From the NCBI GenBank assembly GCA_965279035.1, contig OZ257142.1, positions 824,682-888,681 of the forward strand: DNA of 64,000 bases, in the 5' to 3' direction. This DNA comes from Bacteroidia bacterium. GTDB taxonomy: Bacteria > Bacteroidota > Bacteroidia > M30B66. Shown here piece by piece: positions 19,579-28,934 of the stretch. The notes under the pieces were generated by a model. The model saw only the letters and a program-made list of their open reading frames with translations. It searched no databases and was not told the DNA's origin. How positions within the stretch are numbered: the first letter of the stretch is position 1; the number at the start of each line of letters is the position of its first letter. The translations under genes and the position numbers were made by a program.

Positions 19579-20280
19579 TTATTGTGTTTTGTTGTTGATC
19601 GCAACGACTTCCCACTCAGCATGAATTCTAACAGCTGGTAAAGTAACATCTTCGAATGATTTATGAGTAATACTTTTGATTTCCCAGCCTTTTTCTAAAA
19701 CATCAAAAATGTTGTTCTTCCCATAAAAACACATGGTATGGCTTCCGCTAGGACCACCATCGGAATTATGAATCATCCCATCTTCTCCCATTTTTCCTGA
19801 AGCAAATAGAGAATTACGTTCACTGTAAGGAGTAAAATAAAAAACACCTTGATTGAGTAGCACTCTTTTTATTTCACGTATTGTTTCTTTTGCCAAATTG
19901 AAATTTACATAGGAAACAGATCCTCTGTCGATTACAATATCAAATGAATTGTCAGGAAAAGGAAGTTTTGTGAAATCACCCACAATAAATTCGCCTTCTA
20001 AGTTTTCATCTTTAAAGCGTTTGCGTGCATATTCAACAGCGGTTGCACTACCTTCAATTCCTGTTACGGAGAAGCCTTCACGAGCAGCAAACCACAAATT
20101 ATTTCCTGTCCCACTGCCAACTTCAAGAATCCGAACATCTTTTCGCTCTTTATTTCTAGGATAATTTTTGAAAAGAAAAGCAACAACAGAATCGTAGGGA
20201 TAACGTACAATGTTTTTGTCTTTACTGTAAATATCTTCTTCCCAGATTCGTATCGTGTCGCTATTCATTGCTTGAATCAT
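19579..20280 (-). CDS. Class I SAM-dependent methyltransferase
   Basis: Motif I 'ILEVGSGTGNN' and 'FDIVIDRGS'. Confidence 0.7.
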   Translation of the reverse strand: MIQAMNSDTIRIWEEDIYSKDKNIVRYPYDSVVAFLFKNYPRNKERKDVRILEVGSGTGNNLWFAAREGFSVTGIEGSATAVEYARKRFKDENLEGEFIVGDFTKLPFPDNSFDIVIDRGSVSYVNFNLAKETIREIKRVLLNQGVFYFTPYSERNSLFASGKMGEDGMIHNSDGGPSGSHTMCFYGKNNIFDVLEKGWEIKSITHKSFEDVTLPAVRIHAEWEVVAINNKTQ

Positions 20281-21332
20281 TCAAAATTAGTATATGAAAA
20301 TTGTTGCCCCTTTTTCATGTCTTTGAGGAGTGTTTTCCCAATCAAAGCTGAGATTGACGATGGTGGAATTCCGGTTGAAGGCTTTAAGAAAATAATATCT
20401 TCTTCCTTTATTTTTTGTCCTTTGGATAAATCCGATTTTGCTGCACATGAAAAACGATAATTCAATCGACTATGTGATTCAGATGCTGTTGGACCGATAA
20501 TCGAAGTTCCCAAACAGGTTTCCATCATTCTCACATCACGAATTAATTGACTTAATTCTTTGGGATCGGATGAAAATCGGTGGTCTGGCCCGGGAAGACT
20601 TTTATCGAGCGTGAAATGTTTTTCTATGAAGCAAGCATTGAAAACGATCGAGCCAATTGCTGCTAATGAGCCATCAGTATGATCGCTAAATCCAACAGGA
20701 ACAAGGAATGTGCTTTCTAAGGTTTGGATTTTACGGAGATTTACATCTTCCAATGGAGTAGGGTAGGACGAAGTGCAATGAAGCAAAATTAAATCAGTAC
20801 CACCGGCATCTTTAAATGCACGAACAGAATCATCAATCTCACCAAGAACAGCCATTCCAGTAGATAAAACTGTGGGGATTTTGGTCTTCGCCATATCCCG
20901 AATTAAGGAATGATTTACAAGCGCATCAGAACCATTTTTAAGCAGCGGAGTGTTGATTGCAACAAGATCTTCGAGTGTTTCACGACTTGAAGGAGTACTG
21001 AAAAAAATAATCCCTTTCTTTTCGCAATAATTCTTCAGAAGAAATAATTGTTCCCGACTAAGTTCATAGCGGTTAAACATATCCAGCTGACTTTCAGTTA
21101 CTTCTTTCCCTTGAGAAATGTAAGTGTACTGAAGCGAATCATCAGCAAATAAATCTGACGTTTTATAATTCTGGAATTTAACGGAATCACATCCGGATTC
21201 AACTGCAGCATCAATCATTTTTACTGCAAGATCCATATCACCATTGTGATTAATCCCAATCTCCGCAGCTATAAATGAAGGATTTCCATTTCCAATTAAT
21301 CGCCCCGCAACTCTTACTGGGTTCACATACAT
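20277..21332 (-). CDS. pseI: Pseudaminic acid synthase (NeuB-family nonulosonic acid synthase)
   Basis: 351 aa. NeuB fold ('IAAEIGINHNGD...A' ... 'DSVKFQ') with a C-terminal SAF domain. It sits in a locus with pseB, pseC and pseG. Confidence 0.8.
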   Translation of the reverse strand: MYVNPVRVAGRLIGNGNPSFIAAEIGINHNGDMDLAVKMIDAAVESGCDSVKFQNYKTSDLFADDSLQYTYISQGKEVTESQLDMFNRYELSREQLFLLKNYCEKKGIIFFSTPSSRETLEDLVAINTPLLKNGSDALVNHSLIRDMAKTKIPTVLSTGMAVLGEIDDSVRAFKDAGGTDLILLHCTSSYPTPLEDVNLRKIQTLESTFLVPVGFSDHTDGSLAAIGSIVFNACFIEKHFTLDKSLPGPDHRFSSDPKELSQLIRDVRMMETCLGTSIIGPTASESHSRLNYRFSCAAKSDLSKGQKIKEEDIIFLKPSTGIPPSSISALIGKTLLKDMKKGQQFSYTNFE

Positions 21333-21417
21333 ACCTTGTTCCTCCTTTAAAAACAGAATTATTTCTGATAGTAAGAGGCAAATATATGCTATTAATTTTA
21401 TTCGTCAAATGAAGGGT

Positions 21418-26767: not shown

Positions 26768-27917
26768 TGGAAACTTGGTTTATGACATATTCGAGTTCTT
26801 CATCACTCAATGTAGGAAACATAGGAAGACTCAAACACTGATTGTAATAATCTTCTGCTATCGGGAAATCGCCCACATTCCAACCTAAATCACGGTAATA
26901 CGGTTGAAGATGAACAGGAATATAATGCACTTGAGTAAAGATGTTTTTCTCGCGCAAGAAATCGTACAATTCTTTCCGTTTCGGTGTTCGAATCACATAC
27001 AAATGAAAAGCATGTCCTTCGGGATATTCGGGAACTAATACGTTGGGAGCTAATTCAGAAAATGCTTCATGATAACGAGATGCAATTTTTCTACGACGTT
27101 CCAAACCTTCATCTGCTCGTTTCAATTGAGACGTACCTAAAGCTGCTTGAAAATCGGTTATACGATAATTATAACCCAATTCCTGCATTTCGTAATACCA
27201 GCCACCTTGAGCTACTTCGTCAGGAGAATTTCTAAATTGTGTTGAATCCTTGGTGATGCCATGGGTGCGCAACAGGAGCAATTTTTTATAAAGAGCTTCG
27301 CTGTTTGTTGTGATCATTCCGCCTTCACCAGTAGCAATATGTTTTACTGGATGAAATGAAAAAATCGAGAGATCAGCATTACGGCCATCACCACATTTAA
27401 CTTGGTTTGAATGAGAATCTTTAAAGAAACCACCCGGAGCATGACACGCATCTTCTATGATTTTAAGATCATAGGTATCTGCTAATTTTCGAAATTCCTC
27501 AGTGTTGGCAGGATATCCAGCAAAATCTACGATGATAATTCCAGTAAAAAAACCTTGGGGTTTCGATTTAATTAATGCTTCTGTTTTATCAATATCAAGA
27601 ATGAAAGTATTTGGGTTGATATCGGCAAACCAAACGTTTCCGCCACAATAACGAATACAATTGGCAGAAGCTGCAAATGTTATTGGGCTCGTGATATAAT
27701 TACTGGATGAATTAACATCGAGTGCTAAGGCAGATAAATGAAGTGCAGCCGTTCCATTGGAAACCGCTACCGCATATCGAACTCCAATGTACTTGGCAAA
27801 GGCTTGTTCGAATTCAAGAATGGATGGACCTTGAGTTAAATATTCTCCTTGAAGAACCTTTGCAACAGCTTCTAAATCTTCAGCAGTAATGGATTGTTTA
27901 CCGTAAGGAATTTGCAT
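26748..27917 (-). CDS. pseC: UDP-4-amino-4,6-dideoxy-N-acetyl-beta-L-altrosamine transaminase (DegT/DnrJ/EryC1 family)
   Basis: Starts 'MQIPYGKQSI' (PseC-type N-terminus). PLP-lysine region. Adjacent to pseB. Confidence 0.8.
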   Translation of the reverse strand: MQIPYGKQSITAEDLEAVAKVLQGEYLTQGPSILEFEQAFAKYIGVRYAVAVSNGTAALHLSALALDVNSSSNYITSPITFAASANCIRYCGGNVWFADINPNTFILDIDKTEALIKSKPQGFFTGIIIVDFAGYPANTEEFRKLADTYDLKIIEDACHAPGGFFKDSHSNQVKCGDGRNADLSIFSFHPVKHIATGEGGMITTNSEALYKKLLLLRTHGITKDSTQFRNSPDEVAQGGWYYEMQELGYNYRITDFQAALGTSQLKRADEGLERRRKIASRYHEAFSELAPNVLVPEYPEGHAFHLYVIRTPKRKELYDFLREKNIFTQVHYIPVHLQPYYRDLGWNVGDFPIAEDYYNQCLSLPMFPTLSDEELEYVINQVSNGILKP

Positions 27918-27929
27918 GCAATTCTGAAT

Positions 27930-28934
27930 TTAGAAATTGGGATCAATTTGTTCTTTGATTAATCCTCTGATATCCTCAACGCTTAGCCAATCGGGGTTTG
28001 TACCTGAATTATAGCAAAAGCCCGGTTCTACCATTTTACCTCCTTTTTCGGTGTAATACGATTGCAGTTTATTATTTCCTTGGGGAAGGATGGCGTAATA
28101 TGGACCTAAATCAACTGTATTAAACGAATCAGAACTAGTGATCATTTCTTCGTGCAGTTTTTCTCCAGGACGAATGCCACTAATTTTCAATGTAGCATCG
28201 GGTGCTACTGCTTTAGCAACATCTAAAATTCGGTACGAAGGAATCTTCGGAACAAAAATTTCACCTCCAACTGCATGCTCTGCAGCGTAAAGAACCATTT
28301 CGACACCTTCTTCTAATGAAATATTAAAACGTGTCATTCCTTCGTCGGTGATTGGTAAAACACCTTCATTTTTCTTCTTCATAAAGAAAGGAATAACCGA
28401 ACCACGCGATCCCATTACGTTTCCATAACGAACAACCGAGAAACGTACATTGTGATTTCCTTTCACATTGTTAGCTGCAACAAATAATTTATCGGAACAC
28501 AATTTTGTTGCTCCATAGAGATTAATTGGTGCTGCAGCTTTATCAGTTGATAATGCGACAACTGTTTGAACTTCTGTATCAAGCACCGCATCAATGATAT
28601 TTTGAGCACCTAACACATTGGTTTTGATGAATTCAAATGGATTGTATTCGGCAGCGGGAACCTGTTTCAATGCAGCAGCATGAATCACAACATCAATCCC
28701 TTCGAAAGCACGTTTCAAGCGTTGAACATCACGTATATCGCCTAAGAAATAACGGATACATGGGTAATCGTGTTCGCTGTATTGTTGACTCATTTCAAAT
28801 TGCTTCAACTCATCACGAGAGAAAATAACCAAACGTTTTACATCGGGATAGCGCTTTAAAATGATTTCAACTAATTTTTTACCAAGAGAACCAGTTCCGC
28901 CAGTAATTAGAATTCGTTTATTGTTCAAAGGCAT
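27930..28934 (-). CDS. pseB: UDP-N-acetylglucosamine 4,6-dehydratase (inverting), FlaA1/PseB type
   Basis: 334 aa. Contains 'ILITGGTGSLGKKL...IFSRDELKQFEM', closely like H. pylori FlaA1. Confidence 0.85.
   Translation of the reverse strand: MPLNNKRILITGGTGSLGKKLVEIILKRYPDVKRLVIFSRDELKQFEMSQQYSEHDYPCIRYFLGDIRDVQRLKRAFEGIDVVIHAAALKQVPAAEYNPFEFIKTNVLGAQNIIDAVLDTEVQTVVALSTDKAAAPINLYGATKLCSDKLFVAANNVKGNHNVRFSVVRYGNVMGSRGSVIPFFMKKKNEGVLPITDEGMTRFNISLEEGVEMVLYAAEHAVGGEIFVPKIPSYRILDVAKAVAPDATLKISGIRPGEKLHEEMITSSDSFNTVDLGPYYAILPQGNNKLQSYYTEKGGKMVEPGFCYNSGTNPDWLSVEDIRGLIKEQIDPNF

Follow-up and report, generated by a model that had tools for sequence, protein, structure and literature searches.

A nonulosonic acid gene cluster in a Bacteroidia genome that joins a distinct NeuB-like synthase clade to an ATP-grasp/metallophosphoesterase pair

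Nonulosonic acids (NulOs) cap many bacterial surface glycans and influence how phages and the immune system recognise them. For most of their N-acyl and stereochemical variants, the responsible genes remain to be found; a 2019 review reported that no modifying enzyme was identifiable for the acetimidoyl and glyceroyl substituents on pseudaminic acid (Pse) from Tannerella. We have analysed a NulO gene cluster in a stretch of 64,000 nucleotides from a Bacteroidia bacterium (assembly GCA_965279035.1, contig OZ257142.1, positions 824,682 to 888,681), here called the window and numbered from its first nucleotide. In the canonical PseB-C-H-G-I-F pathway of Campylobacter and Helicobacter, UDP-GlcNAc is converted to a 6-deoxy-hexose that is condensed with phosphoenolpyruvate (PEP) and activated as the CMP-NulO. 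The window cluster has the same overall logic, but it lacks PseH, its synthase lies outside PseI, its hydrolase falls below the PseG cut-off, its cytidylyltransferase is of the SpsF/EpaA type rather than PseF, and nine additional tailoring genes are present.

Three other described systems share parts with the window. In Acinetobacter, EpaA (CTP_transf_3 plus Aldo_ket_red domains) and EpaB, a 262-aa short-chain dehydrogenase/reductase (SDR) of the adh_short_C2 type, convert Pse5Ac7Ac to 8ePse5Ac7Ac, as established by complementation and nuclear magnetic resonance (Sharar et al., 2025; PMC12053666). The same three domains, found in A. baumannii prophages (PMC12053666), are adjacent in the window and belong to a Pse-type pathway; the two systems are likened by domain content. 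In the window, however, the cytidylyltransferase and the aldo-keto reductase (AKR) are separate genes, the order is AKR-SDR-cytidylyltransferase, the genes are chromosomal within a NulO operon, and the cytidylyltransferase is the only one found. The nab cluster of Vibrio sp. B9-25K2 likewise holds PseB, PseC, PseG, a dehydrogenase and an SpsF-type cytidylyltransferase/AKR (there bifunctional), and its product was suggested by tandem mass spectrometry to be an epimer of PseAc2 (PMC7371886). Unlike the window, nab has a synthase that groups with PseI and a PseH homologue; an ATP-grasp enzyme, a metallophosphoesterase (MPE), WbqC and PIG-L were not reported. The Legionella pneumophila O-antigen locus and Campylobacter ptmG/ptmH (Leg5Am7Ac and Leg5AmNMe7Ac, derivatives of legionaminic acid, Leg) also combine a NulO pathway in a polysaccharide locus with methyltransferases and a candidate acetimidoyl gene beside the synthase, but the front end of the window is Pse-type, not Leg-type. 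The Legionella polymer is exported by Wzm/Wzt. A more distant parallel is the glucuronamide of Campylobacter jejuni HS:2, where the ATP-grasp amidoligase Cj1438 reportedly forms an amide with a phosphorylated partner and the phosphatase Cj1435 then removes the phosphate. The sugars, protein subfamilies and phosphatase family differ, and the analogy is one of logic only.

Our analysis indicates that the window cluster is a hybrid: a backbone built around a synthase of a separate clade (NeuB'), with WbqC and PIG-L, to which an MPE/ATP-grasp pair normally found beside a true PseI has been added. Gene assignments were based on curated NCBIfam cut-offs together with Pfam profile scans, and the open reading frames (ORFs) scanned for domains cover window positions 27–42735. 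Positions 20277–28934 are filled exactly by nine intact, contiguous minus-strand ORFs, which form part of a far longer operon whose genes all run in one direction and either overlap or are separated by short gaps. At the head of the operon are the exporter genes wzm and wzt; beyond the tailoring genes (14698–20280) lie genes for glycosyltransferases of families GT2, GT11 and GT4. Because the usual partner genes of NeuB' sit just downstream (14698–20280), the functional unit must reach at least as far as 14698, and the block 20277–28934 is the biosynthetic core of a ~17-kb NulO module (14698–28934) inside a Wzm/Wzt O-polysaccharide operon. This is an observation of gene content, for which chance is not at issue. 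Surveyed comparison loci carry labels such as L008 or L165 (L085–L110 being IMG/VR contigs); those with the MPE/ATP-grasp pair are termed type A and those with NeuB', in five independent contexts, type B.

By its profile scores, the synthase belongs to a large clade that is a member of neither the PseI nor the NeuB family and is closer to the NeuB model. It scores 264.1 bits on the PseI model (TIGR03586; cut-off 340.25) and 342.1 bits on the NeuB_NnaB model (TIGR03569; cut-off 399.65), passing neither yet scoring higher on the second, and five clade mates that were tested also remain below both cut-offs (339–358 bits on the NeuB model). An earlier, sequence-only reading of this DNA had listed pseB, pseC, pseG and pseI as recognisable and had held that a synthase placed with LegI/NeuB would speak against its Pse-derived product. 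PseB and PseC indeed pass their cut-offs, whereas the supposed PseI and PseG do not, and the synthase leans in the direction of NeuB. The closest relatives of NeuB' share 54–65% identity with it and are mostly metagenomic; identity is 55–65% to the synthases of type B loci and 32% to PseI of the surveyed loci, and the protein is roughly equidistant from the solved structures of PseI (180 bits), NeuB (165 bits) and SpsE (164 bits). Alignment to Neisseria NeuB shows that PEP, metal-binding and catalytic residues are retained in the clade and that the K129-I-[G/A]-S-[G/F/Y]-E segment of other synthases is replaced clade-wide by the motif K-N-G-S-D-x-L (nmNeuB positions 129–135). The diagnostic Phe of PseI is Asp in NeuB' and the following Glu is lost; it has been suggested that the Gly/Phe position of this segment senses how the C2 N-acetyl group is oriented. 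At position 184, NeuB' has the Ser of PseI, where Leg enzymes have Tyr. The partners of NeuB' are PseB, PseC and PseG-family proteins, some of the latter passing the PseG cut-off. One locus, L166, encodes a NeuB' clade synthase together with a true PseI (451 bits), at 9001–10050 and 15181–16284, with PIG-L between them, and this occurrence in a single locus suggests that the two synthases are not redundant.

The MPE and the ATP-grasp protein both have intact catalytic motifs. Every catalytic and metal-binding motif of the MPE is conserved, and the ATP-grasp protein keeps its nucleotide and Mg ligands, with K148, E259 and N261 among the invariant residues. An AlphaFold2 (AF2) model of the latter (pLDDT 88) has generic ligases as its nearest folds: 2pn1, PurK, PurD, L-amino-acid ligases and PylC. 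The best PDB match of the MPE is 3qfm, which we take to be a nucleotide-polyphosphate hydrolase/phosphodiesterase. ATP-grasp homologues at 36–60% identity were surveyed in 82 loci, mostly from Bacteroidota, with further examples from Proteobacteria, Firmicutes, Planctomycetota, Acidobacteriota, candidate phyla radiation (CPR) bacteria, cyanobacteria-related metagenome-assembled genomes (MAGs) and one Nanoarchaeota MAG; in species-representative genomes there are at least 517 species-level matches. The MPE gene lies directly upstream of the ATP-grasp gene in 77 of the 82 loci and a synthase gene directly after it in 69 of 82, while a short adh_short SDR precedes the MPE in 53 of 72. PseB was found in 49 and PseC in 58 of 62 ATP-grasp loci, a NeuB' clade synthase in none of the 62. 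In the type A loci tested the hydrolase is a true PseG and the synthase a true PseI (452–515 bits on the PseI model for synthases adjoining the ATP-grasp gene), and a GNAT or hexapeptide acyltransferase (PseH-like) usually lies just upstream. The recurring unit is a trio of oxidoreductase, MPE and ligase, the oxidoreductase being the short SDR or, in the closest relatives, an RmlD-like SDR. In L067 (8563–9992, a Gastranaerophilales MAG) and L069 (8567–10002, a Melainabacteria MAG) an AP_endonuc_2 xylose-isomerase-like TIM-barrel protein replaces the MPE, and the SDR and ATP-grasp genes stay. PIG-L is found beside the pair in several loci and accompanies the closest ATP-grasp relatives, there with a formyltransferase.

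Two simple roles for the pair were considered and rejected. The ATP-grasp enzyme is not a general replacement for PseH, since most pair loci also carry a GNAT or hexapeptide acyltransferase, and the MPE does not replace PseG, since both co-occur in many loci. The sequence-only reading had also appealed to ATP-grasp enzymes that attach amino-acid or acetimidoyl groups in nonulosonate loci; in the searchable literature we found no characterised ATP-grasp enzyme in Pse or Leg loci. A stand-alone GNAT-SDR-MPE-ATP-grasp cassette occurs in an Ekhidna genome (L016, 8015–10939), flanked by hydrolases and AraC regulators and with no pse genes within 10 kb.

Comparison of the two locus types suggests how the window cluster is composed. 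Type B loci have the order PseB, PseC, (GNAT), AKR, (SDR or two GFO_IDH_MocA oxidoreductases), CTP_transf_3, (Aminotran_3), PseG-family protein, NeuB', methyltransferase, (GNAT/DegT fusion), methyltransferase, WbqC, (methyltransferase), PIG-L and a 450–495-aa protein. L165 shows near-synteny with the window, running from GDP-fucose synthase and Wzm/Wzt (60% and 73% identical to the window Wzm and Wzt) through its 495-aa protein and a GT2, but has neither MPE nor ATP-grasp. Among the surveyed loci, NeuB' and the pair are combined only in the window genome and in one 99%-identical metagenomic contig. In the window, the pair sits without its usual SDR and acyltransferase neighbours, and the junction before it is the largest intergenic gap of the operon. 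Composition gives no evidence of a recent insertion of the pair; per-gene GC content and GC content at third codon positions (GC3) are unremarkable. As the sequence-only reading had stated, five genes lie between the pseG-like gene and pseC. AKR, SDR, cytidylyltransferase, MPE and ATP-grasp are all clear Pfam members. They are not a one-off interruption, though, but two recurrent modules, found again in hundreds of uncharacterised loci, and none of the loci is a characterised plain-Pse locus. The cluster is a new combination of partly known parts, and of its recurring modules only the AKR/SDR/cytidylyltransferase trio has a characterised counterpart.

The genes of this trio are adjacent and overlapping, with the SDR between the other two. 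The window AKR aligns to the C-terminal half, and the cytidylyltransferase to the N-terminal half, of fused cytidylyltransferase-AKR proteins, of which more than 120 were found in a protein search (for the AKR, for example, L073 192–1835). AKR is present in 33 of 62 surveyed loci and in many of these is adjacent to a cytidylyltransferase gene; the AKR-SDR-cytidylyltransferase arrangement recurs in L008, L020, L035, L047 and L165. L073, a gammaproteobacterial MAG, encodes the fused protein, then a 264-aa SDR, PseG, SDR, MPE, ATP-grasp and PseI. The window cytidylyltransferase had been described as SpsF/PseF-like; the NCBIfam scan gave no match to the PseF model and only weak matches to KdsB and spiroSPASM, and the best PDB match is 6oew, named 'cytidylyltransferase'. 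It is the only NulO cytidylyltransferase among the scanned ORFs and belongs to the AKR/SDR module. By analogy of domain make-up with EpaA/EpaB, the trio is best read as an oxidise/re-reduce epimerisation module coupled to CMP activation, and the earlier suggestion that the reductases act at C7/C8 thus has an experimental precedent (PMC12053666). The Leg-epimer modules of Acinetobacter also lack a standard cytidylyltransferase, which implies that the free sugar is epimerised and then activated by a dedicated enzyme.

Related modules were seen in other settings. IMG/VR viral contigs (L085–L110; for example L085 4102–6535 and L110 4932–10227; GC 44–50%) carry PseB, AKR and an SpsF-type cytidylyltransferase, some also NeuB, and the marine virus AG-345-L05 has an adjacent SDR-cytidylyltransferase pair. 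Because such genes occur in these viral contigs, phage-borne modules for NulO epimerisation and activation are not confined to Acinetobacter prophages. In L170/L171 (1656–3767), and also in L006 and L024, an SpsF-type cytidylyltransferase is fused to a class-III aminotransferase (~700 aa in all) beside GNAT and AKR genes. Such an arrangement may serve to introduce a further amino group, giving a nonulosonate of the 5,7,8-triamino type. Also present in these loci are HisH/HisF-like genes, as is usual where acetamidino groups are formed, and a formyltransferase-PIG-L pair.

At the level of profile hidden Markov models (HMMs), PseB and PseC are shown to be the enzymes predicted to convert UDP-GlcNAc to UDP-4-amino-4,6-dideoxy-beta-L-AltNAc. 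PseB has the T-x9-Y-x3-K triad and a median identity of 65% to PseB of loci with a true PseI; taken together, the two proteins show median identities of 57–65% to their counterparts in loci with true PseG and PseI. The LegB and LegC models give only 73 and 196 bits respectively. The PseG-like protein keeps the GxGHxxR motif and other family-conserved residues, is 22–27% identical to other surveyed PseG proteins and found no match in a PDB sequence search. No acetyltransferase domain, whether GNAT/PseH or other, occurs in any ORF from 9705 to 31112, in agreement with the earlier remark that the block 20277–28934 has no PseH. The 314-aa protein at 7831–8775, previously called GNAT-like, gives only a sub-threshold GNAT signal (E 0.005); it adjoins a polysaccharide deacetylase (PF01522) at 6834–7811. 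An acetyltransferase at 37.5–39.2 kb was rejected as the missing PseH, since it forms a plus-strand unit of its own with an ArnC/PgfS-like GT2.

The genes downstream of the synthase also follow the type B pattern. Orthologues of the first methyltransferase (52–58% identity) lie directly after NeuB' in L164, L165 and L168, and those of the second occur in L165, L168 and L023; methyltransferases are present in every NeuB' locus examined. WbqC-like genes occur in 5/5 independent NeuB' loci as against 1/82 PseI (type A) loci, and PIG-L genes in 5/5 as against 7/82. The window PIG-L is 62% identical to that of L170, the locus with the closest ATP-grasp relative. Relatives of the 491-aa protein follow PIG-L in L165 (42% identity) and L168 (67%) and follow PseI in L036 and L059. 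The RmlD-like SDR bears a weak likeness to its RmlD-like counterpart upstream of the MPE in L170 (29% identity over 146 aa, half its length) and on that ground was rejected as a displaced SDR partner of the ATP-grasp cassette. PtmG has been reported to convert an N-acetyl to an acetimidoyl group on CMP-Leg, which PtmH then N-methylates, and CMP-NulOs whose amines are free or formylated have been connected with a deacetylase and a formyltransferase inside a Leg-type cluster. PtmG is, we believe, a member of the WbqC family (PF08889), and the likeness of the window protein to PtmG presumably holds on that basis; a PDB sequence search with the WbqC-like protein gave no match. By analogy, the WbqC-like protein, the two methyltransferases and PIG-L beside NeuB' fit a remodelling of the N5/N7 substituents. 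An acetimidoyl group would come more plausibly from the WbqC-like gene, just outside 20277–28934, than from the ATP-grasp enzyme.

Table 1. Coordinates (window numbering), strand and profile evidence for the genes and the spacer of the NulO operon.
Feature	Position	Strand	Evidence or note
Wzm, ABC-2 permease of O-polysaccharide exporter, operon head	30255–31112	-	PF01061 61 bits
Wzt, ABC ATPase with C-terminal carbohydrate-binding domain	28954–30234	-	PF00005 + PF14524 Wzt_C
PseB, UDP-GlcNAc 4,6-dehydratase (inverting type)	27930–28934	-	TIGR03589 510.6 bits (cut-off 407.75)
PseC, aminotransferase	26748–27917	-	TIGR03588 453.4 bits (cut-off 423.5)
Aldo-keto reductase, counterpart of EpaA C-terminal domain	25904–26767	-	PF00248 95.6 bits
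SDR, 264 aa (adh_short_C2), EpaB/AciE counterpart	25122–25916	-	PF13561 149 bits
SpsF-type cytidylyltransferase, counterpart of EpaA N-terminal domain, presumed CMP-NulO synthetase	24289–25137	-	PF02348 94.7 bits
AT-rich intergenic spacer, 194 bp	24095–24288	.	GC 25%; between cytidylyltransferase and MPE genes
MPE (YfcE/SapH-like), ATP-grasp partner	23393–24094	-	PF12850 87.5 bits
ATP-grasp carboxylate-amine ligase-like enzyme	22452–23390	-	PF02655 + PF21360 (PylC-like_N)
Divergent PseG-family UDP-sugar hydrolase	21418–22419	-	TIGR03590 104 bits (cut-off 153.55)
NeuB', nonulosonate synthase of distinct clade, not PseI	20277–21332	-	Model scores, clade motif
S-adenosylmethionine (SAM) methyltransferase MT1	19579–20280	-	PF13649 + PF08241
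WbqC-like protein, candidate acetimidoyl-forming enzyme	18817–19545	-	PF08889 226 bits
Methyltransferase MT2	17830–18750	-	PF08241 + PF13649
RmlD-like extended SDR	16951–17823	-	PF01370 + PF04321
PIG-L family de-N-acetylase	16170–16877	-	PF02585 81.6 bits
491-aa protein, candidate NulO transferase or polymerase	14698–16173	-	No Pfam/NCBIfam match

We propose the following pathway from the nucleotide sugar made by PseB and PseC. The divergent PseG-family hydrolase would release the hexose, which NeuB' would condense with PEP to a pseudaminic-type 5,7-diamino-3,5,7,9-tetradeoxynonulosonate. The SDR and AKR would then oxidise and re-reduce a side-chain carbinol, most likely at C8, to give the 8-epimer as EpaB/EpaA do, and the SpsF-type cytidylyltransferase would make the CMP-sugar. 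PIG-L may free an amine, with the WbqC-like protein and the two methyltransferases supplying acetimidoyl and N- or O-methyl groups, while the ATP-grasp/MPE pair would acylate a free amino group by way of an acyl-phosphate. The MPE might remove a phosphate from the acyl donor or the product, the small acid being supplied or finished by phosphoesterase and oxidoreductase; a phosphorylated hydroxy-acid such as phosphoglycerate, for example, would yield an N-glyceroyl-type group. In the window genome it is probably this pair that makes up for the absence of PseH.

The product is very probably a modified, non-standard relative of pseudaminic acid, although its exact structure is what we infer. The earlier prediction of a derivatised 5,7-diamino nonulosonate other than plain Pse5Ac7Ac stands in a sharper form. 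We favour, with some reserve, the scheme as a whole, in which a hybrid cluster makes a derivatised or epimeric pseudaminic-type 5,7-diamino nonulosonate and the ATP-grasp pair is acylating. Several points weigh against it. A gene for PseH could lie in another part of the genome. PseB-like, PseG-like, NeuB-like and SpsF-like enzymes make legionaminic acid in B. subtilis, so that family membership does not fix stereochemistry. The MPE/ATP-grasp pair mostly co-occurs with a PseH-like acyltransferase and without a nearby deacetylase, and a free amine acceptor is for that reason not obvious; in the window it also lacks the short SDR that accompanies it elsewhere, and the acyl donor is a guess. A more far-reaching version, which we put forward as a rather unlikely possibility, is that the cluster makes an undescribed NulO: the Asp-for-Phe/Gly switch of NeuB' would direct it to a cationic or otherwise non-standard hexose or to a different C4 configuration, the sugar would be 8-epimerised and N-acylated independently of acyl-CoA by ATP-grasp/MPE, and the cassette would be the genetic basis of hydroxy-acyl (glyceroyl/glycolyl type) substituents on sialic-acid mimics.

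The B. subtilis precedent also prompts the reading that the product is Leg-type (D-glycero-D-galacto) or another non-Pse stereoisomer and that NeuB' is LegI-like, paralleling the sps system (SpsM, SpsG, SpsE and an SpsF-type enzyme). The NeuB_NnaB model does give NeuB' a higher score than the PseI model does, the Joint Genome Institute (JGI) names members of the NeuB' clade 'legionaminate synthase', and the cytidylyltransferase is of the SpsF type, from which folds Leg is known to arise in B. subtilis. The front end argues otherwise: PseB and PseC pass equivalog cut-offs that set them apart from LegB and LegC, and they are orthologues of their counterparts in loci that have a true PseG and a true PseI. 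Moreover, no NeuC/LegG-type 2-epimerase is present, position 184 of NeuB' is the PseI-like Ser and not Tyr, and the synthase is no closer to SpsE than to PseI. We regard a Leg-type product as improbable. Less improbable, though still well short of the scheme we favour, is that NeuB' takes a differently substituted hexose (a cationic 2-amino or 2-acetimidoyl sugar, or one with a free or unusual 4-N-substituent) or attacks the other aldehyde face to give a C4 epimer (fusaminic-type), with the deacetylase and WbqC acting before condensation. The invariant Asp that replaces the Gly/Phe specificity residue near the C2 N-acetyl pocket, with loss of the next Glu, would suit such a substrate, as would the strict co-occurrence of NeuB' with PIG-L and WbqC and the presence of both synthases in L166. 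This evidence comprises an active-site alignment and co-occurrence only, and the substrate reported for PtmG is the CMP-sugar.

The role of the MPE/ATP-grasp pair is a separate question. Instead of acylating a NulO amine, it might amidate the carboxylate with a phosphorylated amine that is then dephosphorylated, recycle a nucleotide-linked intermediate, or be a non-functional remnant. The full N-acyltransferase set and lack of a deacetylase in most pair loci, the relationship of the MPE to 3qfm, the absence of the usual SDR and acyltransferase partners in the window and the stand-alone cassette of L016, away from pse genes, are all consistent with one or other of these roles. Against them, both ORFs are intact with all catalytic motifs and are conserved in the 99%-identical second contig, and the fold neighbours of the ATP-grasp protein are for the most part ligases whose substrates are amines of phosphorylated sugars or amino acids. 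We know of no C1-amidated 5,7-diamino nonulosonate, which counts against carboxylate amidation. A non-acylating role is thus somewhat unlikely, and acylation of a NulO amine remains the function that we prefer for the pair.

The surroundings of the module bear on the polymer that carries the sugar. Wzt_C recognises the terminal cap in other ABC-dependent O-antigen systems. The window Wzt carries this domain and, by analogy, the modified NulO could be a terminal cap and not a repeat-unit sugar. The polymer is probably not a homopolymer, because several GT2, GT4 and GT11 transferases are needed. A GDP-L-fucose synthase at 31182–32114 (491.9 bits, just below the cut-off of 500) and a GT11 fucosyltransferase at 11688–12611 flank the NulO module, and the polysaccharide probably carries fucose; among the ORFs scanned we identified no GDP-mannose dehydratase. 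Further out, a three-gene plus-strand unit (37504–40172) encodes a DesI/DegT-type aminotransferase, a NeuD/PglB/VioB-family acetyltransferase (38604–39221, NeuD/PglD-type; TIGR03570 191 bits, cut-off 160.8) and the ArnC/PgfS-like GT2. The unit resembles a polyprenyl-phosphate-linked acetamido-sugar modification system that is separate from the NulO operon. Between this unit and a citrate synthase gene lies a 649-aa minus-strand ORF (35228–37177) that matches no Pfam or NCBIfam model. An assignment of the window to Bacteroidota agrees with the taxonomy of its homologues and with a CHU_C type IX secretion domain at 27–1025.

The locus thus joins an epimerisation module of a recently characterised type, a synthase clade with its own signature and an ATP-grasp/MPE cassette with a wide distribution over phyla. 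Modules of the EpaA/EpaB type are a common chromosomal component of NulO loci, rather than cargo of Acinetobacter prophages alone. The locus offers concrete, testable candidates for NulO diversification; those that most deserve to be followed up are the ATP-grasp cassette and the NeuB' clade. If the hydroxy-acyl reading is true, this cassette, which occurs in at least ~500 species, would supply the long-sought genes behind substituents of the glyceroyl or glycolyl type.

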